Of a stretch of 64,000 bases of DNA, positions 878 through 14,065 are shown one piece after another (within the stretch, counting starts at the first letter, position 1; every line of letters starts with the position of its first letter). The DNA lies in IMG/VR virus record IMGVR_UViG_3300043540_000091, positions 64,001 to 128,000 of that record, one strand, 5' to 3'. The position numbers and the translations under genes were made by a program. The notes under the pieces were generated by a model. That model saw only the letters and a program-made list of their open reading frames with translations, was not told where the DNA came from and did not search any database. Source of the stretch: a virus.

Positions 878-1333
878 TTAAAACGAGTACTTAGTGTACT
901 TTAGGCATACGCCCTTGGATGCGACAGGCGCATTACCAAAGACTATATGAGAGGAGGCACCGTTCGACTTCTCGATCGAAGCTTCCACGGCCTTGAGACC
1001 GCGCTTCTTGGCCCATGACATGGCCGCATCCTTGACCTTGCGATCGACGGAACCGCCGAAGTCCATGCGGATCAGACCATTGTCATATACTGAGGTCATC
1101 ACTTCGTTCTTCTTAAGCTCGCGGACGGCGCGGAAGTGATTTATGGCCTTGTGGACTGTGTCCTTGACCTGCTGTTGCTGCGCGACTACCGGCGTATGGC
1201 GGCCAAACTGCTTCAACCACTTGTAAAAACGATATCGCAACTTCGGAGGAAGCATCTTTTCCAGCTTGGAGAACGCGATGTCATGCGTCAGCTCGGCGGA
1301 AAGGGTATCTACGTCTATCTTGCTCATACTCAT
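878..1333 (-). CDS. hypothetical head-module protein (151 aa)
   Basis: ATGA overlap with the giant ORF; preceded by the CCTAATCT motif. Confidence 0.7.
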   Translation of the reverse strand: MSMSKIDVDTLSAELTHDIAFSKLEKMLPPKLRYRFYKWLKQFGRHTPVVAQQQQVKDTVHKAINHFRAVRELKKNEVMTSVYDNGLIRMDFGGSVDRKVKDAAMSWAKKRGLKAVEASIEKSNGASSHIVFGNAPVASKGVCLKYTKYSF

Positions 1334-4300
1334 CTTAGATTAGGTTTCTTCTTGCGCTTAGGACGTTGGTCCGGCGCGTTCAGTTTAAGAACCCAGCACT
1401 TCGTCGACAGCTTGCTTGCGTTGAGTTCGCCAAGCAGACTGCTCGAGTAACGAGGGTAGTCGGTATAGTCGCACTCCTCGAACCCATACTTGCGCGGACC
1501 TTCTTCGTAGATCTTACGGAAGCCCGACATCTTAGCCTTGGTATTCTTGTTGTCCCAGAACTCACGATTATAGTCCGAGTTGGACAAGTAACCTCTCAGC
1601 TCAGCTCCATGCATGTACAGATTCTTGATGCCATGCGCCTTGGCGTTCTCGATGACTGCCTGCATAGATGCGTCGGCCCAGTCGTCCAGGTGCCGCGCGA
1701 TCGTCTTCGAGTATTGCTTCATCTCATCCGCAGTGATGTGTTGTCCGTTGATGTGAGAACCCTCCGGCATCGACTCGATCAAGGCGTTCAGGTTTGACCG
1801 GAACTTCTGGGCAAAGTCAGACTGATATTCTTCAACAACCCAAGATCCCTTGTCCTGATCGGTATCGACGCGTGACCAGGATACGAGGTGAGGAGTCGTC
1901 GGATGGAGGCCGATCGAGTTCTCGGCGGCGTCCACTCCGTTGGCGTCCATGAGAAGGTGCTGATACAAGGCCCACAGCTTGGGGTCTTTCGACAGCTCGC
2001 GTTCCTTCTCCTCGGAGTTGTTGACTTGAACGACGAGGTTTGGCTTCTGATCTTCGCCGCGATGACGTTGAAGTGGAGACTTCCAGTCGGAGAACGTGAT
2101 GTGGTACTTGGACGCGTTGTCGTCGAGCTGACGAGCTGCTTCAACGAAGCGCTCCGGCATGACCGGCTTATTGTTCGCGGCCATGAAGACGTCCTTGACA
2201 GACTTAGGAAGGTTCTTCTCCTGCTGAGGATACTTTCGCTTGAACTCAACCCAAGACATACCTTCTGCCGGTATGAATCCCATCACTTCGCGCATCTTCT
2301 CGTAGTCACCGCTCTTGACGTTCAGAGTCTTGACTGCCAAAGAGCCATCCACGTTCGGAACATCCTTTGGAGTTACGACCGGCTGAGCCCTGAACAGCTT
2401 ACCACCGTGAGTGGGGTTCACGAAGGCTGGATTGAACGGAGCTTCGTGCGTTATGTACGCGCCGTACTCCTTCTCAGACTGGCTCATGACCTTGGCCAGC
2501 CGCGCTTCGCTGATGTTCGGATGCTTGAGAAGTTGAGACGACAGTCCCATGCCTATGGATTCGCTGAATCTCGCATGGTTTGCCTGAGCGTTGGTGGATA
2601 CTTGATCCGCTATGCGATCTACAGACGACTGAGGTACGCTCGGGTTTTCTAGCATCTTGTTCATCGCCGCTTCCATAGCTTCCGGATTGGTGACGAACAT
2701 GGCACAGACTCTGCCTGAGACCTCTTCGTTGATGTGAGGAGATCTGATCACCGGTTCGAGGCGATTAGCGATGTTTGAGCCTTCGTATGATCCAGAATCT
2801 TTGCTGATTGCGAACAGGTCGGTTCCCATGATCTTCTTGTGATCACGGACGTACATCTTCAACGTCTCTTCTCCGCCAGCTCCGTTGGTAACAGCTTCCT
2901 TGAAGAGACTCTGAGCGATGGAGTGATCCTTCGTTCCTACCATGATGTCCTGTACGTCGCCGCGAGTCATGTGTCGTGCCATGGACTTTATGGCAGTCTT
3001 CATGCTGTTCTGGTAGGCATCGCCCTGGACCTTGCCGTCGACATGCATCCGCACGTACATGTCCATGAGTTGCTTGCCGTAGGCAGCACGGTCGTCGCTG
3101 CTCATCTTGTTCATCCACTGCGAAGATTCGACCATGAAGGCTTGGTGCATCGAGCCTTCACCTGTCTTGGAATCTTCGATGCCGCGCAGATCGACGCTTG
3201 CAAGAGCTTCCTTAGGGATGGAGGATCTCTTCGAGAGAGCGAACATGGCGTCGGGACGAGACTGAAACATGGACTTCCAGTCCTGATCCTCGAGCTGTTC
3301 GGCCTTGGATACGATGTTGGTCAGGATACCAAAGGTCTCTTCTGGCGCGGTGAGTTTCTTGCCTGCCGCTTCGTCGAGAGAATGGAACTCCTTGAGCATG
3401 TCGAACGTCTTCATCGCTTGGTTTCTGCCAAGCTTGATGTTGGCCGAAGCTATGTTCTCGGCGATACCCTTTATAGCTTGATGATTGTACCTGACGCTAT
3501 CTCCGTATCCAAGCTTAGCTGTCTCATCTCTGAGAGATGCGGCTATCTTCTGGACACTTTCGTGTATCACGTCGACCATCTGGTCGATCTTCTCGAGCTT
3601 ACCTCCTACTCCAGACAGATCAGACGTAAACGTCGAGTTGGCCACGACGTTCGAGAAGATCTTGAGCTTGTTCAAGATAGCTTCACGGTGCTCCATTCCT
3701 AAGTGAGGAGCGCCAGGTGCAGCAAGGTTCGGATCTTTGAGCAGATCTTGGACGGAGTTCAGCCGAGAATGGGCCACGTCTACGAGATTGCCTTCCAAGG
3801 CGTTATACACGCTCTCGGCGACGTCTCGGAACTCGGCGTCAGTCAGTGATCTTCCAAGCTTAACCGAGTCTTCCATCTGAACGTACTTGTTCTTGTTCAG
3901 AGTGATCATCAGTTGAGCGTTTCCTTCAGGCAACGGAGTAGTCATGGCCCTTGAGACCAAGATAGAAGCGTTGTTGCCGGTTAGCTTCGACGCGTTCTTT
4001 GCCAACATCTCAAGCTTAACGCCGGACTGAGCCATCTCCATGAACCTGGGATTGTTGACGATGGACGACATGTTCAGTGGATTGAACTGATTGTATGCAG
4101 CCCTATCATTCGGGAGAGAGGCTAGCAGATCGATCGACCTTTCCTCGTCCGTATGAGACTGCGCCACGGCCATCTTGTACAAGAGACTGTTCGCGTGAAG
4201 AGCTACCGCTGGGTTAAGGGCGGCCTTCTTGGTGTAATTCACCACGAAGTCGTTCTTGACCTTATCTTCTTCAGACGAAGTCGTGGAAGCGTTGAACGTG

Positions 4301-7300
4301 TGTGACAGGGAGCTGATGAACTTGACCGTATCTTCGTTATGCTTGCGCGTCTTGCCCTCAGCTCGCTCTTGAGCAAGCTTTGCCTCGAAGGTCTTGGCCA
4401 TCTCGACGACGGTCTTTGGCTCTGTAGAGTTGCTGAACTGAGTGGAGATGCCAGCGATCTCGGAAGATGACAGTTTGCCAGGAGACTTCACTGCACGAGC
4501 GATGAACTCCATGCCCTTGTCTGAGAGATTACCTTCCTGAGCCATCGTGACAAGGGTATTGAAGTCCTTGGAATCCATAACCTGACGCTCGAACGCGCTC
4601 TTGGTCTTCTCTCCTACCAGGTCCTTGCGGCTGAGAGCGTTGATCGCTCTGTACATAGACTCATTCTTGACCTGATCTGACGGGTAACTTCTCGAGGACA
4701 GATGATCTAGGACGTCCTTCGAGATCCTGTCCATGTCCTTGTCGGTAAGCTCTTTCACGTTTGACGGACTCGTGAATGCATTTCTGATGATGTTCGACAG
4801 GTCGTCGGGAGACTTATCGATAGACAAGTCCATCAGCTTGCGCAAGCGACTAGAATACTCGCTGAACGCGTTGTCTGACATGGAAGTAGAACGACCGCCA
4901 GTGTGGGCTTCTGGGTTTAGCAGGTACTGGTTGAGACTTCGAGAGATGTCGCTCACGTCATCAGGACTAAGGTCCGGCTTCGACAACCATCCGTCGAGGG
5001 CGGTTCTCTTGACGGCGTTGTTGGGTATGGCCAACACGTCTGCCAAGCTTCCAGTCTGAGCTATCTCTGATACCTTCTCGGGAGAGATCAGGTCCTTCTG
5101 CAGCGCGAGCTTGCGCAGCTGCGCTCCGGACTCACCAGGCATGTCAGCCAAGAAGTCCATGTTGACGCCGCCGGTGTGTTTCAAGGTCTGGAAGGCATCG
5201 CTTCCTATGCCGTAGTAGTTCTTGGTATTGTTCAGTAACTTGGCCCAGTTCCCAGCTACCTGATTGTCATCGTCGTTGGGTATGGTCGCCATACGATTGG
5301 CGATCTCATTCATTATACCCTGCGCTCGTTCCTTGCTGGCTTGGCCATTGTGAAGACTTTGACTCTGGCTTCTTACTCTCTGGCCGAACATCTTTGACGC
5401 GAGATCGTTTCTTCCAGTGGCGAGGGCGTGATCTATCATACCCTCGCGAGTTAGGATACTCTTGGAGACCGAATTCATGATATCTTCATCTGACAAGTGT
5501 CCCTGCATCTCTGCCGGAGTTCCGATCAGTTGCTTGGCAAGATTCAGATGAGATACGTCCAAAGAGTTCAGACGATGAACGGCGGCGTTCTGAGCCCGTG
5601 ACTCTCCCTCGTGATTGAATCCACCAAGGACAGCGTTGCCGAAGAGATCCGGTCGATGTTCTGATACGTTCTTGATGTTCTCAGCAAGAACCTCGTCGCG
5701 ATGTTCTGCAGGCAGCATCTTGAGTGCGCGGTCCCATATCTCGGCAGGTGCCTTCGTGTGAATGATGGACTTCGCGGCTTCTTGAGAGCCCGAGTTCAGG
5801 ATCTCTGAGTACCGTGCCTTCTGGTCTGCTTCAGGAAGTTGGTCGTAACGCTTCAGCTCATCGCCCTCCCCGATGGCATCCATCAGGTCCTTGTTCTTGG
5901 CGATATCATGGAAGGTATCGAGAGACAGGTTCTTGGATCTGAAGATGGGCGCGATCACATGCGCAGGCTCAAGATCTTTCGGCCTTCCGTGTCTGTCATA
6001 GATCTTGGGAGGCTTTGCTGCGTATTCTTTGGCCTTAAGATATGCGCTATCTAGGAACGAAGGATCGGCTTTCTTGAGATCGATGTGACTGGACAGATTC
6101 TGCATCATGGCTGGGTTGGACAAGACAGCTTCTTGCGCATTCTTGTCGCCAGATTGGGCAAGCTCAGCTACCGCTCGAATCAACCGGCTGTCATCGTCAT
6201 TGTGTTGCTCATGAAGAACATTGTACGGAGAAGCGTAGAACTCCTTGTTCTTGCCGATCTTCTTCTTGAAGGCCGTTGAGATGTCCTTGGCATGCTTTTC
6301 ACGTATCTCTGGAGACACACGCGAGTCCATTGCCATACTGAGCTTGCTGTGAAGTACTGTTTCTGGACGTTCCTTAGTCTTCTTGGCGATGTCTTCGAGA
6401 TCAGCGCCAGCATACTTCTGGTGCGCGGCCTTGAAGATCTCGTCCTGCTGTTCCTTCGGCATCTTGTCGAAGTGACTCTTGAAGTCATCGTCGTGATATA
6501 CTTCAGAGATCGACGTCTTGCCAGAAGAGAGCCTTTCTCGGACCTGCTGATCGGCAACTAGAGGATGCAGGCGAGCCGCGTCCTGGACAGTACGAGCCTT
6601 GCGTTTAAGAGCTTCCTGCACGACCGACATGTCTGCCTTGTCATGATTAAGCGCTTGCACGGCCACGTCTTGGTTCTTATGATTTACAATCTCCTTGAGC
6701 ACGTCCGGCGGTACCTGCTTGGCGGACAAGATGTTTCTTGCCGCGTCGGTACTCTTGTCGGAACCGTTCCATGACGCGCGAACATCAGACTCATCGGCAA
6801 GCTCATGGTGAATGGCATCTTGAGAACCCTTCTGGATGAGTGCCTTTACCTGTTCCTTGGTTATCGACGGGTTCCTTAGAAGATTCGAGATCTTTGACTT
6901 GTTATCATAGTCGTTCGGCTTTTTTACACGACGAATGAACGCGTCGATTGATTCCTTAGGAAGGTTCGGATGCTGAAGAGCTTCGCGTCTAGCGTCCTTG
7001 TTGGTAGCATACTTAGCAAGCAGAGCCGGATCGACGTTGTTGTGCTCGAGGATATCTCCGATCGCGTCGTGGCGGGAGTAGTCATGTTCCTTGGGAGTGG
7101 ATTCAAGCAACTGGTGGATCTTGTTGAGGTGTGCGCGTGACAGGTCCTCTCGCGCCCGTACCAGCCTACCAAGATGCGATGCGTTATCCGGAGTCGGTGA
7201 GTACTCGTCGACTCCATGGTACTTATTGGCATGGATCGAGTCAATGGTCCTGTCGAGAGTCTCCGGCGTGTGGCGCTTCGAGTTTATGAGGCCCTCGAGT

Positions 7301-7842
7301 CCGTACTCCCCGATGCCTTCCTGAGCTTCGGGATTCTGAGATCCTTCCTTCCAGTGCTGCATGTAATAGTCTGGAGGCAGCTGTTCGTAGGTGTGCGGGA
7401 TAGCTCCGGCCTTGAACGCCTTGTCAGACATGGTACGAAGCTCATCTTCGTTCATGATTCCAGAGTTCGCAAGATCTTCATGAGAAGAAGAGTTCGGATG
7501 GTCGGGATGGAAGGTCCGTGATAGATAGTCCTTCTTGATGTGAAGCGGAGTGTTCGGATGCTTCATCAAGTTGTCTGCCCATTCATAGCTGTACGGCTCT
7601 GCCTCGCCCGACTCATCGAGCGTATGGCTGTCCATCATGTGGTTGTACAACTTCTCGATGCTGGCAGATGACAAGTTCGGATGCTGCGTAAGCTCATCCA
7701 TGAGAGGCTCGTTCTCGAACTTCTCAGCGTCGGGCAAGGAGATGTACTTCTCGACATGAGAATGCAGAGTGTCAGCTGGCGTATCAGGTGCCAGATGCGG
7801 AGTGTCGACTGTATCTTCTACTTCATCATCATGGTCCGACAT
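1330..7842 (-). CDS. giant 2170-aa probable internal virion/polyvalent protein with helical HPNxP repeats and a C-terminal GNAT-like domain
   Basis: Repeated H-P/N-N-x-P/S units (HPNLSS, HPNTPL, HNNVDP, HPNLPK, NPSITK, NPSVPQ, HPNISE). C-terminal WSRVD..WVVEEYQSDF and ENAKAHGIKNLYM..IYEEGPRKYGFEE. Head-module location. Confidence 0.6.
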   Translation of the reverse strand: MSDHDDEVEDTVDTPHLAPDTPADTLHSHVEKYISLPDAEKFENEPLMDELTQHPNLSSASIEKLYNHMMDSHTLDESGEAEPYSYEWADNLMKHPNTPLHIKKDYLSRTFHPDHPNSSSHEDLANSGIMNEDELRTMSDKAFKAGAIPHTYEQLPPDYYMQHWKEGSQNPEAQEGIGEYGLEGLINSKRHTPETLDRTIDSIHANKYHGVDEYSPTPDNASHLGRLVRAREDLSRAHLNKIHQLLESTPKEHDYSRHDAIGDILEHNNVDPALLAKYATNKDARREALQHPNLPKESIDAFIRRVKKPNDYDNKSKISNLLRNPSITKEQVKALIQKGSQDAIHHELADESDVRASWNGSDKSTDAARNILSAKQVPPDVLKEIVNHKNQDVAVQALNHDKADMSVVQEALKRKARTVQDAARLHPLVADQQVRERLSSGKTSISEVYHDDDFKSHFDKMPKEQQDEIFKAAHQKYAGADLEDIAKKTKERPETVLHSKLSMAMDSRVSPEIREKHAKDISTAFKKKIGKNKEFYASPYNVLHEQHNDDDSRLIRAVAELAQSGDKNAQEAVLSNPAMMQNLSSHIDLKKADPSFLDSAYLKAKEYAAKPPKIYDRHGRPKDLEPAHVIAPIFRSKNLSLDTFHDIAKNKDLMDAIGEGDELKRYDQLPEADQKARYSEILNSGSQEAAKSIIHTKAPAEIWDRALKMLPAEHRDEVLAENIKNVSEHRPDLFGNAVLGGFNHEGESRAQNAAVHRLNSLDVSHLNLAKQLIGTPAEMQGHLSDEDIMNSVSKSILTREGMIDHALATGRNDLASKMFGQRVRSQSQSLHNGQASKERAQGIMNEIANRMATIPNDDDNQVAGNWAKLLNNTKNYYGIGSDAFQTLKHTGGVNMDFLADMPGESGAQLRKLALQKDLISPEKVSEIAQTGSLADVLAIPNNAVKRTALDGWLSKPDLSPDDVSDISRSLNQYLLNPEAHTGGRSTSMSDNAFSEYSSRLRKLMDLSIDKSPDDLSNIIRNAFTSPSNVKELTDKDMDRISKDVLDHLSSRSYPSDQVKNESMYRAINALSRKDLVGEKTKSAFERQVMDSKDFNTLVTMAQEGNLSDKGMEFIARAVKSPGKLSSSEIAGISTQFSNSTEPKTVVEMAKTFEAKLAQERAEGKTRKHNEDTVKFISSLSHTFNASTTSSEEDKVKNDFVVNYTKKAALNPAVALHANSLLYKMAVAQSHTDEERSIDLLASLPNDRAAYNQFNPLNMSSIVNNPRFMEMAQSGVKLEMLAKNASKLTGNNASILVSRAMTTPLPEGNAQLMITLNKNKYVQMEDSVKLGRSLTDAEFRDVAESVYNALEGNLVDVAHSRLNSVQDLLKDPNLAAPGAPHLGMEHREAILNKLKIFSNVVANSTFTSDLSGVGGKLEKIDQMVDVIHESVQKIAASLRDETAKLGYGDSVRYNHQAIKGIAENIASANIKLGRNQAMKTFDMLKEFHSLDEAAGKKLTAPEETFGILTNIVSKAEQLEDQDWKSMFQSRPDAMFALSKRSSIPKEALASVDLRGIEDSKTGEGSMHQAFMVESSQWMNKMSSDDRAAYGKQLMDMYVRMHVDGKVQGDAYQNSMKTAIKSMARHMTRGDVQDIMVGTKDHSIAQSLFKEAVTNGAGGEETLKMYVRDHKKIMGTDLFAISKDSGSYEGSNIANRLEPVIRSPHINEEVSGRVCAMFVTNPEAMEAAMNKMLENPSVPQSSVDRIADQVSTNAQANHARFSESIGMGLSSQLLKHPNISEARLAKVMSQSEKEYGAYITHEAPFNPAFVNPTHGGKLFRAQPVVTPKDVPNVDGSLAVKTLNVKSGDYEKMREVMGFIPAEGMSWVEFKRKYPQQEKNLPKSVKDVFMAANNKPVMPERFVEAARQLDDNASKYHITFSDWKSPLQRHRGEDQKPNLVVQVNNSEEKERELSKDPKLWALYQHLLMDANGVDAAENSIGLHPTTPHLVSWSRVDTDQDKGSWVVEEYQSDFAQKFRSNLNALIESMPEGSHINGQHITADEMKQYSKTIARHLDDWADASMQAVIENAKAHGIKNLYMHGAELRGYLSNSDYNREFWDNKNTKAKMSGFRKIYEEGPRKYGFEECDYTDYPRYSSSLLGELNASKLSTKCWVLKLNAPDQRPKRKKKPNLR
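1337..1344 (-). promoter_or_regulatory. putative late promoter box CCTAATCT
   Basis: One of six identical minus-strand copies seen directly upstream of structural, lysis or head-module genes. Confidence 0.55.
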
Positions 7843-8450
7843 TACTCATCTCCGTACTTCAGCCAGTACATCATCTTGCGAGTCCATTCCTTATCCTCGG
7901 CCTGATGAAGACGGGCATTCTCGATATCTTGGTCATACTTCTTGCTCGCCAGCTTCTGGTTACGCTCTCGCTCGGCCTGCTGCTTGTTGATCATGTCAAG
8001 AACACCTGAACTTAGACTGACGTTAACTGGTTTGGCCGGTGCTTGCTCTGCAAGAGGCGGCGTTGACACGATCGGGAGAGCTTCCTGGATGTCAGTCTTC
8101 CGTGCGACCTTGATGTCACCGCGCTTGATCGCTGCGAACAGCGCGTCCTTGGTCTCTTGATCGATCAGATCGCCGTTCAGCATGCAGGTATGGCCATCAG
8201 AGGTGATCTCAACCACGTCGCCATTGTCCATGACGTAGCGCAACAGGTTGACAGTTGCCTTCTTCGGCTGCTCGATGGTCAGGTGAGATGACTTCTGGAC
8301 GACCTGGATCATGCGCTGATAGCTATTCTGGAATAAGTCTGGGAGTTTGCCGTTGGTGTTATCGACGACGAAGTCCAGAACGCGACCATCCGTGCGGATC
8401 TCGGCCAACGGAACGTCAGAATAATCAGATTTTATGACAAAGATCTTCAT
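7842..8450 (-). CDS. hypothetical protein (202 aa)
   Basis: Translationally coupled to both neighbours (ATGA and TAATG overlaps). Confidence 0.75.
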   Translation of the reverse strand: MKIFVIKSDYSDVPLAEIRTDGRVLDFVVDNTNGKLPDLFQNSYQRMIQVVQKSSHLTIEQPKKATVNLLRYVMDNGDVVEITSDGHTCMLNGDLIDQETKDALFAAIKRGDIKVARKTDIQEALPIVSTPPLAEQAPAKPVNVSLSSGVLDMINKQQAERERNQKLASKKYDQDIENARLHQAEDKEWTRKMMYWLKYGDE

Positions 8451-10198
8451 ACTGCAGCCTTCTTCTTCTGTTCAGCATGCTCCGCATCGCGAGCTGCTCC
8501 AAAGGTTGGGCGGACTGCATTGTTCACGATGCTGCGCATGTGATCGATCGGCATGTCAGGCCTATCGGCGACCTTCTGGTACATCATGAGTCGGCCAACC
8601 GCGTGCTTTATGGTAATTGGATGATGCCCTTGATCCATCATCCTGCCAGCGAGTTTCTTCGGATCAATCCCCTTGATCCACTTGACTGCTTCCGGATGTA
8701 CCGGCTGACTGTCGCGCAGGTACCACGGCTTCATAGCTGGATCATAGTCGAACGAAGCGTCGTTGTCAATGTTTACCAGGTGTCCTTTAGGATGAATCAA
8801 CGTGTTACCGGAGTTCCGATCAGTGTCAGCGCCGAGGATACTGTCCATGATGGCCATTTTATGAACCGAACCGTCCTTGTTGGCGTTCTTCAAGACCGAG
8901 GCGATCTTCTCATCGGTCATGGTGTACGGAGTCTTAGCTCCGTCTATGATCTCCATGGCTTGATGATGCCGCTGAGATGCCTTATCGCCGTCTATTTCCT
9001 TAACTCCAGCAACAGGATGCTTGAAGTAGTTCGTGACAGGGACGTGCTTGCCCATGCCGAAGACGTCGTTGGCCAGCTCATAGTAGTGGGTTGAGTTTTC
9101 TGCGGCCTTGCTATGGTCAGGATGTTTTACCAGTACGTTCTGTCCGGCGTCGTTGCGATGCTTGGTGATGAGATTCGCGTAGTTCTCATGCCCTGGCGTA
9201 AAATCGGTGCCGCCGTGCTTACGCTTGGGATCAAAGTACAGCCCTTCCATCAGCTTCTTCTGTGCTTCTGACTGATTCTTGTTCGGACTGTGCGAAGCTC
9301 CGACGCGGATAAGCTTGATGGACGGCTTCGACTTCTTGAGCGCAAGCTCCTCGGCAAGATCCGTGAAGTGGTGGATGTAATCATCCGACACTTCCGGAAG
9401 AGCTGCCTTAAGAACTTCCTTCAACGGGCGCTTACGGTCCCAGTCGCGAACGATCGCCTTGACTCGGTTACGCTGGAATCCGGTGATATGTTCCTTGGTG
9501 AGCGCTGCGCCGCCGGTCAGCTGACCTGGCGCGACATTGCCCATACCGGCAGTGAGTGCCTTGTTCAGATCCTCGAGGGCCTTGTGCAGGTCCAGGACCG
9601 GATCATGAGGCATGAACGATTCATCCAGTACCGGCGATTCGAATTTCATAAGGTCTGCTATGTCCGAAGATATCTTCCGTATCGACTTTGCGACACTCTT
9701 CGTCTTAGGGTCATCATAAAGACCGGCAATGGCCATCTTGTTGCAGCTGCGGAGAGTGATGGCAACGCGACGGCCAACCGATTCCTTAAGAATATAGTCT
9801 TCACGTTCTAGAGTAGCTCCTTCTATGCTGAAGCCGACCAAAAGCCGCTCATCCTTTGCCGCGTAATAGCGGATCATAGCGGCGACGGCTACCGCACCTG
9901 GATGCTCTTGATCCTCAAACAACTCGCCTATGATATACACGAATGGTTTTTTCGAAAAGTCCCAGTAAGCTCTTTGTCGATCGTTCTCGCAATCTTTCTT
10001 TTCCATTATCTTCTTGGCATAGATAACAGCGCCGACGATATCTTCAGCTTTATTTGAATGCTCGAAGTTCAGAACGCCTTTACCATCTATAAGATCCGAG
10101 ATGTCGTGGTTCTCTACTATTAATAACTCACCGCTTGAGTCGATATGCTCGGATGTTGCTATGCCGTCTATCTTAAGATTCACGACGCGTACTCCCAC
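8447..10198 (-). CDS. prohead maturation protease fused to a C-terminal PI3/4-kinase/HipA-like kinase domain
   Basis: N-terminal IDGIATSEHIDSSGE..VLNFEH..VGFSIEG (herpes/HK97-fold prohead protease motifs). C-terminal VLVK..YYELANDVFGMGKHVPVT..DSILGADTDRNSGNTLI..LVNIDNDASF. Confidence 0.75.
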   Translation of the reverse strand: MGVRVVNLKIDGIATSEHIDSSGELLIVENHDISDLIDGKGVLNFEHSNKAEDIVGAVIYAKKIMEKKDCENDRQRAYWDFSKKPFVYIIGELFEDQEHPGAVAVAAMIRYYAAKDERLLVGFSIEGATLEREDYILKESVGRRVAITLRSCNKMAIAGLYDDPKTKSVAKSIRKISSDIADLMKFESPVLDESFMPHDPVLDLHKALEDLNKALTAGMGNVAPGQLTGGAALTKEHITGFQRNRVKAIVRDWDRKRPLKEVLKAALPEVSDDYIHHFTDLAEELALKKSKPSIKLIRVGASHSPNKNQSEAQKKLMEGLYFDPKRKHGGTDFTPGHENYANLITKHRNDAGQNVLVKHPDHSKAAENSTHYYELANDVFGMGKHVPVTNYFKHPVAGVKEIDGDKASQRHHQAMEIIDGAKTPYTMTDEKIASVLKNANKDGSVHKMAIMDSILGADTDRNSGNTLIHPKGHLVNIDNDASFDYDPAMKPWYLRDSQPVHPEAVKWIKGIDPKKLAGRMMDQGHHPITIKHAVGRLMMYQKVADRPDMPIDHMRSIVNNAVRPTFGAARDAEHAEQKKKAAV

Positions 10199-10968
10199 TT
10201 ATATCCCTTATATGAAGAGTACTTACCCGCAAGGCACCGATACACTGAACTCTTTATGAAACCAGCGGCTTCAGCGGCCTTGGCGGTGCTGAAGAAGAGC
10301 GCGGGGCCGCCTTCCAGACTGACAGCCTTAAGTTTGGACCCACGGGAGAACTTCGGAGATAAACGTGTTGATCTAGACTTAAGATGTAATAATTTAAGTC
10401 CTGTAGGAGTTCTCGTTAAGGAAGGCTGAGGATATTCTGTTTCCGGCGCAAACTTCCACCGACTACCTGCATGAGACCATTCCTTACCATTGCAGCACTT
10501 GGAGATCGATACCCGACAATATCCATCGGCCTGAGCCATCCCCATGTTTGGGTAACAGACTTCGATACCTGTCACGAGGTCCAGCCTGACTACTCGACGC
10601 GCGTTTGGTTGTCGGCATCTGAAGCCTGTGTTGGACTGCTTTATCTTGAGTTTAATGTCTTCAGACAAAGTCTTGTACTTTGATCCGCCTGATTCAAGGT
10701 TGTATCCATTCGGCACTATAGACTTATGCTGAGCGATATGGAACCTCTCTAGGTCATCAAGAGCTTCTGGAAATGGAGCTGACGCCAGAATTGCCACCTC
10801 AAAGTTATCCTTGCCATACTTCTGGATGGCCTTATGAAGCAAGAACTTCCTAGTCTGACTCGCGTAGCAGTGTTCGGCCCATCGGCGTTCAATACCTTGA
10901 GAAGTTTGGCCGACGTACTTCTTGCCGTTGACCTTGTTTGTTATTAGATAAACGATGCCGCAGTTCAT
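10180..10968 (-). CDS. GIY-YIG homing endonuclease with NUMOD-like DNA-binding repeats
   Basis: GIVYLITNKVNGKKYVGQT..RWAEH..GYNL. Two NUMOD1-like units (SISKCCNG..GSRWKF; SVYRCLAG..KGYKWEY). Confidence 0.9.
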   Translation of the reverse strand: MNCGIVYLITNKVNGKKYVGQTSQGIERRWAEHCYASQTRKFLLHKAIQKYGKDNFEVAILASAPFPEALDDLERFHIAQHKSIVPNGYNLESGGSKYKTLSEDIKLKIKQSNTGFRCRQPNARRVVRLDLVTGIEVCYPNMGMAQADGYCRVSISKCCNGKEWSHAGSRWKFAPETEYPQPSLTRTPTGLKLLHLKSRSTRLSPKFSRGSKLKAVSLEGGPALFFSTAKAAEAAGFIKSSVYRCLAGKYSSYKGYKWEYAS

Positions 10969-10975
10969 ATCTCAC

Positions 10976-10983
10976 AGATTAGG
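10976..10983 (-). promoter_or_regulatory. putative late promoter box CCTAATCT
   Basis: Exact motif 7 nt upstream of the GIY-YIG ATG. Confidence 0.5.
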
Positions 10984-11887
10984 GTTCGTGTTTGCAACCA
11001 AGGGTACAAGTGTTACCGCTACTCTTTGAGAGTACATGCTCCTTCTCGTGCTCGATGTTGATCTCTAAGTATTCGTCATAACTGATGAAATTTGGCATCG
11101 GCGTGTCGGCGGAGGTCGGCTCTTCAGACTTGCGAACGCTCCAGTAGTCCTCATAGTAGTCATAGCCGATCGCCTTGAAGACGATCGTGCCGGACTTATC
11201 GTACCCGAAGTTCGGAGGAACGAAGGCCATGATGTGTCGGCAGTGAGGATGAAGAGGCGACTGGTGCGGCGTCTTGCCGTCCCATTCCTTAGGTTTGAAG
11301 TACCCTTCTCGGACCTGCGACAACCGATATGGTTTGGGGACCTGCAGATTGGACCGGTCATGGTACATGGACTTGCAGTACTTGCAGATCTTATGGTCGG
11401 CGATGCCGAGAAACACGACGGTCGGATCTTTCACCTTGATGTCAGACGCCAACCTCGTGATACCCTCGCGAGAGGCGTAGGCTTGAACGATGTGAGCCTC
11501 GTTCGCCACTAACATGTCAACGTATTCTCCGGCCTTGTCGAAGTGATTTCTGATATACCGGATCGCTTCCGATGGAGTCTTTGCCTTGGCTACGTCGGCC
11601 AAGATATGATTCTTCACCTTCAGCTGCTGGGAGTCGAGGTAGTCGGACGTGATCTCGGCGAGATTCTTGATGTTCGAGACGTTTGGCTTTGCGTCGGGAC
11701 CGTATAGCATCTTCAAGGTGTACATGTAGATGCCTTCGATCGTGTGAAGAGGATCGGTCCGCTTCACGACCTCGAAGTAGATCTTCGGCCCTTTGAAGAG
11801 CTTGCCGAGAAGACCTGCCTTGGTACTCTCGAAGAGAGACTCGATGCGGCTGATGATTAAGCGGCGCTGGGCGTCGGTGAGCTTCAC
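10979..11887 (-). CDS. MuF/SPP1 gp7-like head morphogenesis protein
   Basis: DHKICKYC...PLHPHCRH motif; position immediately after the portal. Confidence 0.75.
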   Translation of the reverse strand: MKLTDAQRRLIISRIESLFESTKAGLLGKLFKGPKIYFEVVKRTDPLHTIEGIYMYTLKMLYGPDAKPNVSNIKNLAEITSDYLDSQQLKVKNHILADVAKAKTPSEAIRYIRNHFDKAGEYVDMLVANEAHIVQAYASREGITRLASDIKVKDPTVVFLGIADHKICKYCKSMYHDRSNLQVPKPYRLSQVREGYFKPKEWDGKTPHQSPLHPHCRHIMAFVPPNFGYDKSGTIVFKAIGYDYYEDYWSVRKSEEPTSADTPMPNFISYDEYLEINIEHEKEHVLSKSSGNTCTLGCKHEP

Positions 11888-14065
11888 CTACTCTCCCTTC
11901 TTGTCGTCCTTGATCACCTTGGACATGTCGGCGACGGCCTTCTTCGCTTCCTTGCGCCAGCGCTCCATGTGAGCGTCGACAAGGTCGTTGTGTCTGCGAA
12001 GCAACTTTCTCGAGATCGAGTTGTGATTGTTCTTGATGGCCTTCTCCAAGACGACATAGTTTGCGGCAGCCCACTGAATGTTCTTGGTTGAGATCTCCTT
12101 GATCTGATCAAGAGGCTTCTCTGCCTTGGACGTCTGTTCCGGCGGTGGATTGGAGTCTCCCGAATCTTGGTTAGAATCACCGGAGTCACCCGAATCTGGG
12201 TTACCCTCGTCTTCTCCTCCCTCTTCGGGACCTCCCGCTGAGGTTTGCATGGCCTGCTGCTGTACCATCATCTCCTGCTGCATGGCGATCTGAGCCTTCT
12301 GAAGCACGATCTGTTGTTGCTGGAACCAGAACGGATCACGGATGTACTGATAGCGAGGATCTTGTGCTGCGCCCTTCTGCTTGAAGAGATTCTCTAGGAT
12401 CACGCCGACCGGCACGTACTTATCAAGGACGGCCTGCATCTGCGGGTTCAGAGGGAAGTCGCCGCCAAGCTCGGCGGGGACCGGATTCTTCTCCACCTGC
12501 TTCATGACCTCGTTGTAGGTCATATGGACGGCCATGTCCTGCTGGAGTCGAGTGTTCTCCTTCTCGGGAGAGTCCTTCTCGAGACCTGTCATAACGATCT
12601 GGTGAGTCTTTGCAAGCTCGGAGTCGACGAACGGGAGGATGTGACTGTTGAGGAAATCCTGGATGTCCTGCAGCAACGGGCGCAAACCCACGTCGCGAGC
12701 AGCTGTGAGCTTCCATTCGTTGTCAGACTCGGAGAGGGCCTGAGTGTTCGTGCCGCGAGCAAGGTGCGCGTAGCCAGGAAGCTCTTCAGGAGACATCTGG
12801 AATGACGACAGGATCACACGAGCGTTGTTGTCCATGAGGTACTGGAACTCGGCGTCGCGGCCAGAATTATCGATCGGCTGCCATGAGAGTTCATCGTCAG
12901 TTCCGACGCCGAACACCGGCATGCGCCATGCGTTCTGGACAGAGTTGATGGACTGGTGGAACTGCAAGCGGATGCGCTGTACTGCCGCCTCATCGACGGA
13001 GTCAGACTTGAAGATTAACATTCCCTTTGCTGCGCGACCGTGCTGGAAGTACAGCTTGTTGTGCACCGTGATGTTGATATGAGTCGTGATGGCGTTCAAG
13101 GCCTGATCGATTGGAGTTAGCGGATAGCCAGAGAACTCGACGTTGGTAGTCGGGTACAGATTGTAGACCACCATCTCATCTTCTGTGAAGGCCTGAGATG
13201 GTTTACCTTCGATCACCTGAACGTAGCGGTATTCATCTTTCTTGTACTTCTCGATGTCGATCTTCTTGTTCTTCAGCTCAGACAATAGGCGGATGGCTTC
13301 AGTCCGAAGCGACTGGTCTTGCTCCTTCTTGGGCATGACCTTGTACATGGTACCAGCGTCGGATGCACGCCACGCGTACAGCTCGCTCTTACCGGTCTTG
13401 ATGTTGCGTTTCCAAACTCGTTCACATGCGAAGCGTCCGTACGCTAAGCCATCGCGAGTGATCAGCTTCAGGAACTGACTGAGGTTCACCTGGTTCAACT
13501 CATCGTCGAGAGCGCCATGGCCACAGCGCCACAGTATCTTCTTGGCACCGTCGATACGCTCTTGGATTTGCTTTGCTTCTTCCTCTGAGCGCTTGCGGTT
13601 CTTGTCCATTTCCTGGAACTCGAAACCCATGGAGAATCGATCGGTGCGAGGACGACCGAACGAGCCGATCATGTTAGAGCGTGCTTGTAAGATCTGGTTG
13701 ACAAGCTCGTCGCCGCCAGGACCTGTGATGCGTTTCAAGATATGGTCAGGAGTAAGGTTGGATTTTAGTCGATAGAAGCCCATCCCCGTCGCATAGTTTG
13801 CGCGTGGATCGACCTCGAACGCCATCCGGTCTACGCCGTCAGGCTGAGAAGCTATACGTTCGTTCTGTTGCCGGATGGACTTTAGGATGAGGCCAAGTAC
13901 AGAGTTACCTTCCGCCTTCTCGAACGGTTCGCCCTTGTCGGCTGCGGCATTCTGCGCCTCCCGATCTGCCTCTTCCTTCTTCAAGAGGTTATACGAGTTC
14001 ATGTCCAGCGCAACTATCTGCTGGACATGCTTAGCCGGTTTTGGACCGCTCTTATCTTTGGCCAC
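11888..14065 (-). CDS. portal protein
   Basis: DGLAYGRFACE, GYPLTPIDQA, YFQHGRAAKGML, DAEFQYL..ILSSFQMSPEEL, GLRPLL..IQDFLN, MTYNEV (HK97/Herelle-type portal pattern); follows TerL. Confidence 0.88.
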   Translation of the reverse strand: MAKDKSGPKPAKHVQQIVALDMNSYNLLKKEEADREAQNAAADKGEPFEKAEGNSVLGLILKSIRQQNERIASQPDGVDRMAFEVDPRANYATGMGFYRLKSNLTPDHILKRITGPGGDELVNQILQARSNMIGSFGRPRTDRFSMGFEFQEMDKNRKRSEEEAKQIQERIDGAKKILWRCGHGALDDELNQVNLSQFLKLITRDGLAYGRFACERVWKRNIKTGKSELYAWRASDAGTMYKVMPKKEQDQSLRTEAIRLLSELKNKKIDIEKYKKDEYRYVQVIEGKPSQAFTEDEMVVYNLYPTTNVEFSGYPLTPIDQALNAITTHINITVHNKLYFQHGRAAKGMLIFKSDSVDEAAVQRIRLQFHQSINSVQNAWRMPVFGVGTDDELSWQPIDNSGRDAEFQYLMDNNARVILSSFQMSPEELPGYAHLARGTNTQALSESDNEWKLTAARDVGLRPLLQDIQDFLNSHILPFVDSELAKTHQIVMTGLEKDSPEKENTRLQQDMAVHMTYNEVMKQVEKNPVPAELGGDFPLNPQMQAVLDKYVPVGVILENLFKQKGAAQDPRYQYIRDPFWFQQQQIVLQKAQIAMQQEMMVQQQAMQTSAGGPEEGGEDEGNPDSGDSGDSNQDSGDSNPPPEQTSKAEKPLDQIKEISTKNIQWAAANYVVLEKAIKNNHNSISRKLLRRHNDLVDAHMERWRKEAKKAVADMSKVIKDDKKGE

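Follow-up and report, generated by a model that had tools for sequence, protein, structure and literature searches.

A prohead protease with a copy of the capsid protein N-terminus and a PI4KII-like kinase domain: a possible carrier of exchangeable enzyme cargo in an Mx1-like phage

Why would a phage head maturation protease carry a piece of the capsid protein and a kinase domain in one polypeptide? The question is raised by a gene on the minus strand of a 64,000-nt stretch of viral DNA, here called the window, which corresponds to bases 64001-128000 of the IMG/VR record IMGVR_UViG_3300043540_000091 (138,678 bases, estimated to be 86% complete). An initial annotation, made from the letters of the window alone, had described the gene product as a prohead protease followed by a segment resembling the N-termini of Herelle-type major capsid proteins (MCPs) and by a PI3/4-kinase/HipA-like domain, and had suggested that the kinase is packaged through the protease, released by self-cleavage and injected. 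All strings quoted there were found: DLNKALTAG...ALTKE at residues 210-236 (nt 9491-9571), VLVK at residues 355-358, and DTDRNSGN and IDNDASF within residues 458-483 (nt 8750-8827; residue numbers of the protease-kinase follow the 583-aa frame throughout). The observation is confirmed, and none of the quoted features is due to chance; the interpretation as a whole is partly supported. In our reading, to which we give about an even chance, the protease of this Mx1-like phage is a carrier of enzyme cargo that would be released by self-cleavage and delivered to the host.

The segment behind the protease domain turned out to be related to the phage's own MCP. In a BLASTP comparison, protease residues 203-238 aligned with MCP residues 3-38 with 20 of 36 positions identical (E 7e-9). 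The MCP starts with a 13-residue leader ending in L-V-K, which is followed by TLEAGNYNVAPSQLVQGSALQIE; within the leader, L-V-K-T-L-E is repeated twice. As the alignment extends over both parts, the protease contains, judged by this match, a copy of the MCP leader together with the start of the mature arm. The likeness of KALTAG..GGAAL to Herelle-type MCP N-termini thus holds for the MCP of the same genome, and it reappears elsewhere: the protease segment pairs with the own MCP N-terminus also in Myxococcus phage Mx1, the gp15 segment of Listeria phage P100 pairs with the N-terminus of Cps, and in a third, distant clade (L076, L079, L081) protease and MCP share a different, G-G-x-x-P-T-D version. 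In the proteases of this third clade, the MCP-like segment is directly followed by a short, Cys-rich C-terminal tail (C-x-x-C ... C-x-x-C), which replaces the helical linker described below and looks like a zinc ribbon.

For the analysis of co-variation, 54 loci with both genes were available; in 16, at least one of the two proteins had no gapless motif, and from the 38 with a gapless 27-residue motif three duplicate pairs were dropped, leaving 35 unique protease/MCP pairs. Identity between own partners was 15.54 of 27 positions compared with 13.68 +/- 0.22 for shuffled partners, and 0 of 10000 shuffles reached the observed value, a significance that is overstated, as the calculation treats related genomes as independent. 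Because clade-specific versions are shared by both proteins, the aligned sequences show that the protease segment and the MCP N-terminus change together. In the AlphaFold2 (AF2) model the confidence in the MCP-like segment was low, with residues 218-221 and 229-233 below a pLDDT (predicted local distance difference test) of 50, as expected for an extended arm.

The N-terminal domain is, by sequence comparison and context, a prohead serine protease of the Herelle/Mx1 type. Residues 10-145 matched PHROG 1028 ‘head maturation protease’ weakly (E 9.3e-4), and a tblastn search of the protease-kinase against 50,697 phage records returned 65 matching records. The best of these was phage Mx1 (41.4% over residues 7-290, E 6e-63), in which the matching gene is annotated ‘putative prohead protease’ (WNM70322.1). 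The other 64 records came from Listeria, Staphylococcus, Mammaliicoccus and Enterococcus phages at E values of about 1e-4; the matches listed among them showed 27.5% over residues 10-215 and lay in genes annotated as prohead or head-maturation protease. In an alignment of 99 full-length relatives, from which all column counts given here were taken, H47 and S124 were invariant (99/99), as were N44, E126, G127, T129 and R132. By analogy with HK97-type proteases, H47 and S124 would form the catalytic pair. No Pfam peptidase family (S78, S77 or similar) matched the window protein with a threshold of E<=0.1 or any of 30 relatives with E<=0.01. The assignment as a protease is therefore based on PHROG, tblastn, the invariant His and Ser, the folds of predicted models and the position of the gene. 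The full-length AF2 model (pLDDT 86.8) matched entries of BFVD named ‘Prohead protease’, ‘Prohead serine protease’ and ‘COG3740 phage head maturation protease’ at E values from 1.9e-9 to about 1e-6; these entries are predicted viral models, and the comparison of the full model with the PDB returned kinases.

Between the MCP-like segment and the kinase lies a conserved linker with three predicted helices, in which W253, P258, L259, K264, P268, Y274, H277 and F278 are nearly invariant. The protease-kinase contains six patterns of the form [LMIVF]-x-K-small, and only those starting at residues 211 and 287 are kept, each in 98 of 99 relatives. The pattern at 211 (site 1) precedes the MCP-like arm, and the one at 287 (site 2) marks the junction of linker and kinase and belongs to the LALKKS proposed as a cleavage site in the initial annotation. 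Its Leu is found in 98/99 and K289 in 99/99 sequences, and position 290 is occupied by G, S, N, A or T, all small residues, in 98/99. The two unique forms of this clade that stop after the linker and carry no cargo (L020 and L045) end six residues past L-K-K and have Phe, not a small residue, after the Lys, which speaks for site 2 as a cleavage site. Information on the corresponding site of the capsid protein came from deposited structures, among which the window's MCP matched 9vel_C ‘Gp6.1’ (E 1.2e-14), 5lii_P (463 aa) and 9row_B (439 aa). In the latter two, the aligned sequences are the same but their numbering differs by 24 residues; judged by this offset relative to the full-length 5lii_P, the deposited 9row_B begins directly behind the Lys homologous to MCP K13 and protease K213. 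We take 5lii_P and 9row_B to belong to a staphylococcal Herelle-type phage and ‘Gp6.1’ of 9vel to be the SPO1 capsid protein; the entries themselves give molecule names only. Herelle-type MCPs are understood to be cut after Lys.

The C-terminal domain is, according to a profile match and its predicted fold, a member of the PI3/PI4-kinase superfamily with a type II PI4-kinase-like fold. The Pfam profile PF00454 (PI3_PI4_kinase) matched residues 444-528 with 33.9 bits (curated cut-off 27.1, E 4.2e-8) over profile positions 133-214, which correspond to the catalytic and activation loops, and was found at E<=0.01 in 22 of 30 family members. A sequence search of the single protein against solved structures gave no match, and a family profile gave marginal PI3K/mTOR loop matches only (E 0.027), in which the kinase loop was paired with the catalytic loop and the I-D-F-G motif of PI3Kalpha. 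When the domain was folded alone (AF2, 79 aligned sequences), the model reached a pLDDT of 92.6 and a pTM of 0.91, so that structure prediction on this region, which the initial annotation had recommended, did yield a kinase fold. Foldseek placed VPS34 and PI4KIIalpha/beta at the top (E 3e-6 to 4e-5, TM up to 0.51). In an exhaustive comparison of the model with 48,161 chains (VIA-align), the best solved fold was PI4KIIalpha, 4pla_A (Z 17.7, root-mean-square deviation 3.8, 248 residues aligned), with 4hnd_A at Z 17.3; lower values were obtained for Fam20 (12.7), CtkA (12.5), actin-fragmin kinase (12.1), ATM (11.8), PI4KIIIbeta (11.0), VPS34 (10.8), HipT (10.4), HipA (10.1-10.2) and MavQ (10.0). 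As 17.7 is far above all other folds, the domain is predicted to be PI4KII-like and not HipA-like. Of the earlier PI3/4-kinase/HipA-like assignment, the PI3/PI4 part stands, and the HipA part was rejected, given the Z scores of 10.1-10.4 and the lack of any HipA Pfam match at E<=0.1. Among predicted viral structures, BFVD returned a 584-aa ‘PI3K/PI4K catalytic domain-containing protein’ of an uncultured phage (E 1.7e-35) and also, by model name only, models named for Nudix and ferritin/DPS domains. An Atlas look-up of the kinase domain gave unnamed clusters only.

The residues expected of an active kinase are largely conserved in the family: K358 in 93, D460 in 87, R461 in 97, His at position 462 in 83, N465 in 90, D478 in 96 and N479 in 90 of the 99 sequences. 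K358 lies within strand 354-358 of the AF2 model and is the candidate ATP-binding Lys, and D478, which is aligned with the Asp of I-D-F-G in PI3Kalpha, is the candidate Mg-binding Asp (DFG equivalent). The catalytic loop D-R-H-x-x-N is incomplete in the window, where D-R-N-S-G-N has Asn in place of His and keeps the Asp, the Arg and the final Asn. Asn occupies position 462 in 3 of 99 sequences, and the closest relative of the window protein (71% identity) has His. To our knowledge, type II PI4 kinases are without the His of DRH. Overall, the window deviates from the consensus at 2 of 38 conserved kinase columns; as this equals the family median, the domain is not decaying by this measure.

What relatives carry in this place proved to be variable. 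A wide protein search (E<=1e-3) yielded 185 relatives, of which about 100 measure 500-600 aa and come from contigs of up to about 175 kb. From the 79 IMG/VR loci obtained, we compiled 77 unique protease open reading frames (ORFs), with Mx1 and P100 counted in, of which 18 are cut by a contig end. Of the 59 complete ones, 36 have the kinase; 17 of these are short like that of the window, and 19 contain extra segments. The kinase is missing from the other 23, which comprise five bare proteases of <=340 aa, five of 341-620 aa and 13 longer ones. A GGDEF domain was detected above the cut-off on the protease in six loci (L036, L040, L055, L057, L058, L061). GNAT domains scored above the cut-off in P0106 and P0107, whereas the matches in P0112 and L045 fell slightly short of it. 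The C-terminal domain is thus swapped among relatives, as had been suggested for checking: it is a kinase, a GGDEF domain, a GNAT domain or absent. Some long protease-cargo ORFs are broken by inteins (L048, 9977-14260, PF14890 with 36.9 bits, cut-off 35.8; also L043 and L056). In two loci, the kinase has an ORF of its own, which overlaps the end of the protease ORF or directly adjoins it (L037, 12228-13676; L048, 14263-16278); the gene may be split or frameshifted there, or the assembly may be faulty.

With the kinase domain alone as query, 303 proteins were found at E<=1e-3. Classified with local hidden Markov models (HMMs), the 132 new matches listed consisted of 55 proteins with protease, linker and kinase, six with linker and kinase, and 71 with the kinase only; Pfam searches on ten of the kinase-only proteins showed little besides PF00454. 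The six linker-kinase proteins begin within the end region of the protease and may be truncated gene calls. Among cultured phages, this kinase was found in Mx1 only. The Mx1 genome (L001) also has a separate ‘nucleotide cyclase’ gene at 13130-13861, two genes after its protease-kinase gene.

How these parts could work together is suggested by their order. The protease would enter the procapsid, with the MCP-like segment and the helical linker serving as a docking and recognition element, which perhaps binds whatever the MCP N-terminus binds. Once activated, it would trim the MCP after K13 and cut itself after K213 and K289, the two conserved patterns being the candidate sites. A folded kinase of about 33 kDa would be freed inside the shell and, being too large to leave, would stay in the head until it enters the next host with the DNA and phosphorylates a target there. 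An accessory, deliverable cargo is suggested by three observations: the kinase is dispensable and replaceable, its replacements are effector-type enzymes, and protease peptides occur in Herelle-type virions. As to the latter two, enzyme families such as GGDEF and GNAT are typical of conflict effectors (PMC5512222), and peptides of the prohead protease have been reported for purified virions from three phages of the Herelle type (PMC3601020, PMC12282133, PMC5618024).

Several points weigh against the protease as a cargo carrier, in addition to the overstated significance of the own-pair excess. We infer cleavage, presence in the virion and injection for the family as a whole. The conservation of site 2 may in part be structural, because L-K-K ends the linker also in forms without cargo. 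By inspection, the Mx1 sequence has no clear L-x-K-small site directly before the kinase. The GNAT domain of L045 is placed between the protease domain and the MCP copy, and since it lies upstream of the copy, a cut at site 1 would leave GNAT attached to the protease and separate it from the MCP-like tag. The activity of the window kinase may be reduced by the Asn in place of the DRH His that 83 of 99 relatives have. Finally, P0105, P0109, P0110, P0090 and P0100 keep the kinase domain without the catalytic loop and the Mg-binding Asp and are probably pseudokinases; with loop and Asp lost in these divergent members, catalysis would not be needed everywhere.

The kinase could also act earlier, in the producing cell or the procapsid, by phosphorylating scaffold, MCP, portal or protease to time assembly or maturation, with the fusion as a means of positioning. 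The fusion does put the kinase beside head proteins, its gene lies in the head module, and the catalytic residues are conserved in most members. We nevertheless consider such a role unlikely: the kinase is missing from 23 of 59 complete relatives, and the five bare proteases have the same head genes, so that head assembly does not need it, and the GGDEF and GNAT domains that replace it are of the conflict-effector types mentioned above and have no obvious role in assembly. That losing the chemistry is tolerated in several lineages, which keep the domain after the loss of its catalytic loop, would fit a non-catalytic module such as an internal head protein, a nucleotide sensor or a decoy, in which the fold is kept and not the activity, and the DRN of the window in place of the family's DRH points the same way. 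Against this, the window keeps K358, D460, R461, N465 and D478 and deviates no more from the conserved kinase columns than the median family member; the type II PI4 kinases, its closest solved relatives, are likewise not known to have the loop His. We regard a purely structural or binding function as rather improbable here.

A further possibility is that fusion merely ensures co-expression and that, late in infection, the protease sets the kinase free in the cytoplasm, where it would act on defence systems or superinfection, for instance, and would never be packaged. This would agree with the separate kinase ORFs directly after the protease ORFs of L037 and L048 and with the 71 of 132 further kinase-domain proteins listed in which the local HMMs found no protease of this family. 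Yet the separate ORFs could be frameshifts, and the candidate cut sites copy the maturation site of the MCP, which is processed in the shell. Moreover, prohead proteases of this fold, such as those of HK97 and T4, are normally activated only inside the procapsid. Release in the cytoplasm appears rather improbable to us.

The surroundings of the gene (Table 1) are those of a head module, in which the protease-kinase gene is placed between portal and MCP, all on the same strand. The start of the protease-kinase is probably not the first codon of the listed ORF but the GTG at 10183, giving 578 aa, because relatives begin with MNLKIDG, GGGAG lies 8 nt upstream, the GTG overlaps the stop of the preceding GIY-YIG gene as GTGA, and the database copy has 578 aa. 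Homologues of the GIY-YIG gene occur at the same position in L005, L019, L022, L025, L026 and L072 and not in L004; with the same spot occupied in only some relatives, it looks like a mobile insertion. Downstream of the protease-kinase, the order of the 202-aa and 2170-aa ORFs is kept in the short-form clade (L004-L022). Neither ORF had a Pfam match above the cut-off or a PHROG match, and a comparison with the extra segments of the long protease forms revealed no homology. Two small ORFs lie between the 2170-aa ORF and the 282-aa Ala/Pro/Asp-rich protein, which is probably the scaffold; the N-terminus of the latter shows two L-A-K-small patterns, like the presumed cleavage motif. In the MCP, residues 307-403 match PHROG 19622 ‘esterase/lipase’ (E 7.2e-10) and are, to judge from this match, probably an inserted surface domain.

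Table 1. Position of the protease-kinase gene, its parts and its neighbours (window coordinates unless L002 is given)
Feature	Position	Strand	Basis or remark
Whole protease-kinase ORF	8447..10198	minus	583 aa as listed
Predicted prohead serine protease domain, residues 6-165	9704..10183	minus	PHROG, tblastn, invariant His/Ser, fold matches, gene position
Candidate catalytic His47	10058-10060	minus	
Candidate catalytic Ser124	9827-9829	minus	
Copy of own MCP N-terminus, residues 203-238	9485..9592	minus	BLASTP
Candidate cleavage site 1, L211-N-K213 then A214	9557-9568	minus	Ahead of MCP-like arm; same form as MCP maturation site
Conserved helical linker domain, residues 240-289	9332..9481	minus	Helices 240-251, 259-266, 272-289 in AF2 model
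Candidate cleavage site 2, L287-K288-K289-S290 (within LALKKS)	9329..9340	minus	Linker/kinase junction
Predicted PI4KII-like kinase domain, residues 296-583	8450..9313	minus	Pfam, AF2, Foldseek, VIA-align
Lys358 (VLVK)	9125-9127	minus	
Catalytic loop D460-R-N-S-G-N465	8804-8821	minus	
I477-D-N-D480	8759-8770	minus	
GIY-YIG homing endonuclease	10180-10968	minus	PF01541, E 1.2e-11; between MuF-like gene and protease
302-aa gene (MuF-like)	10979-11887	minus	Weak head-morphogenesis matches
Portal	11888-14065	minus	PF04860
202-aa ORF	7842-8450	minus	Directly downstream of protease-kinase
2170-aa ORF	1330-7842	minus	Downstream of 202-aa ORF
Ala/Pro/Asp-rich repeat protein, 282 aa	2-223, continuing L002 2888-3736	minus	Directly before MCP; crosses left edge of window
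MCP, 463 aa	L002 1495-2886	minus	Just left of window; 54% identical to Mx1 MCP

Returning to the protease as a cargo carrier, a wider version of this reading can be put forward tentatively, as possible though doubtful in its full extent. In a large clade reaching from Herelle-type to Mx1-like phages, the copy of the MCP N-terminus would be a portable tag for capsid targeting and cleavage, and the Mx1-like branch would use it to load swappable enzymes (the PI4KII-like kinase, a GGDEF cyclase, GNAT and possibly others), which would be cut free in the head and, once injected, would reprogram the host or disarm its defences. If true, this would explain how the maturation protease of the clade finds the procapsid and recognises its substrates, namely by bearing the N-terminus of the substrate itself, and it would provide phages with a simple modular route for loading head enzymes destined for the next host. 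The set of cargoes (kinase, nucleotide cyclase, acetyltransferase) would then point to functions in early host takeover or counter-defence, and the 36-residue tag with its L-x-K site might become a tool for packaging proteins into HK97-fold shells. Phage Mx1, which is grown on Myxococcus xanthus, is a system in which the idea is directly testable.

Mx1 is also the closest known counterpart. Its ‘putative prohead protease’ has the same His/Ser motifs and the same MCP-N-terminus copy as the window protein, and the C-terminal kinase is present, with 28% identity (E 8e-14); it differs by about 600-700 extra residues between linker and kinase. Gp15 of Listeria phage P100 likewise has a homologous protease domain (27.5% identity over residues 10-215) with the same His/Ser motifs and the MCP copy behind it. 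In contrast to the window protein, it has only 264 aa and no cargo, since only about 20 residues follow its L-A-K-G. In a literature search, supplements excluded, neither a fusion of protease and kinase nor the MCP copy was found described, nor was a prohead protease as carrier of such payloads, and the words protease, kinase and capsid are absent from the Mx1 genome announcement.

The type II PI4 kinases (PI4KIIalpha/beta) resemble the kinase domain as its best fold match, in matching the same HMM, in the Asp...Asn of the loop and in the I-D-N type of the Mg-binding motif. They differ in sequence (12-17% identity), and the phage domain has a bacterial host and is fused to a protease; no sign of a lipid substrate or of membrane insertion was seen. 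The HipA/HipT toxin kinases share a protein-kinase-like fold and a D-x-H-x-x-N type loop, and their structural match is much weaker, as noted above.

Packaging of non-structural proteins has parallels in other phages. In T4, the internal proteins and Alt carry an N-terminal capsid-targeting sequence that is removed by the prohead protease gp21. As proposed here, the procapsid takes up non-structural proteins or enzymes, the maturation protease cuts them off a targeting element, and they are delivered along with the DNA. In our case, protease and cargo are one polypeptide, the candidate tag is a copy of the MCP N-terminus, and cleavage would follow Lys, not Glu. Short peptides also direct proteins to the inner face of HK97-fold shells in the C-terminal capsid-targeting tail of HK97 gp4 and in the cargo-loading peptides of encapsulins; the candidate tag described here differs in being the shell protein's own N-terminus and internal to the polypeptide. 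In MuF-toxin fusions of phages, an effector is placed on a head-associated carrier. Polyvalent proteins follow the same principle according to Iyer et al. 2017 (PMC5512222), with effector domains (kinase, GNAT and others) on a head-associated carrier that are predicted to be packaged and injected. The kinases of these polyvalent proteins belong to a Ser/Thr/Tyr-kinase clade without a C-terminal subdomain, in contrast to the full bilobal PI4KII-like domain found here, and the carrier in our case is the prohead protease. Protease-cleaved tags for head loading are thus already known from T4, capsid-targeting tails from HK97 and encapsulins, and carriers from MuF and polyvalent proteins. New are the prohead protease itself as the proposed carrier, a candidate tag that is a co-varying copy of the MCP N-terminus, and a PI4KII-like kinase as one putative payload of several.

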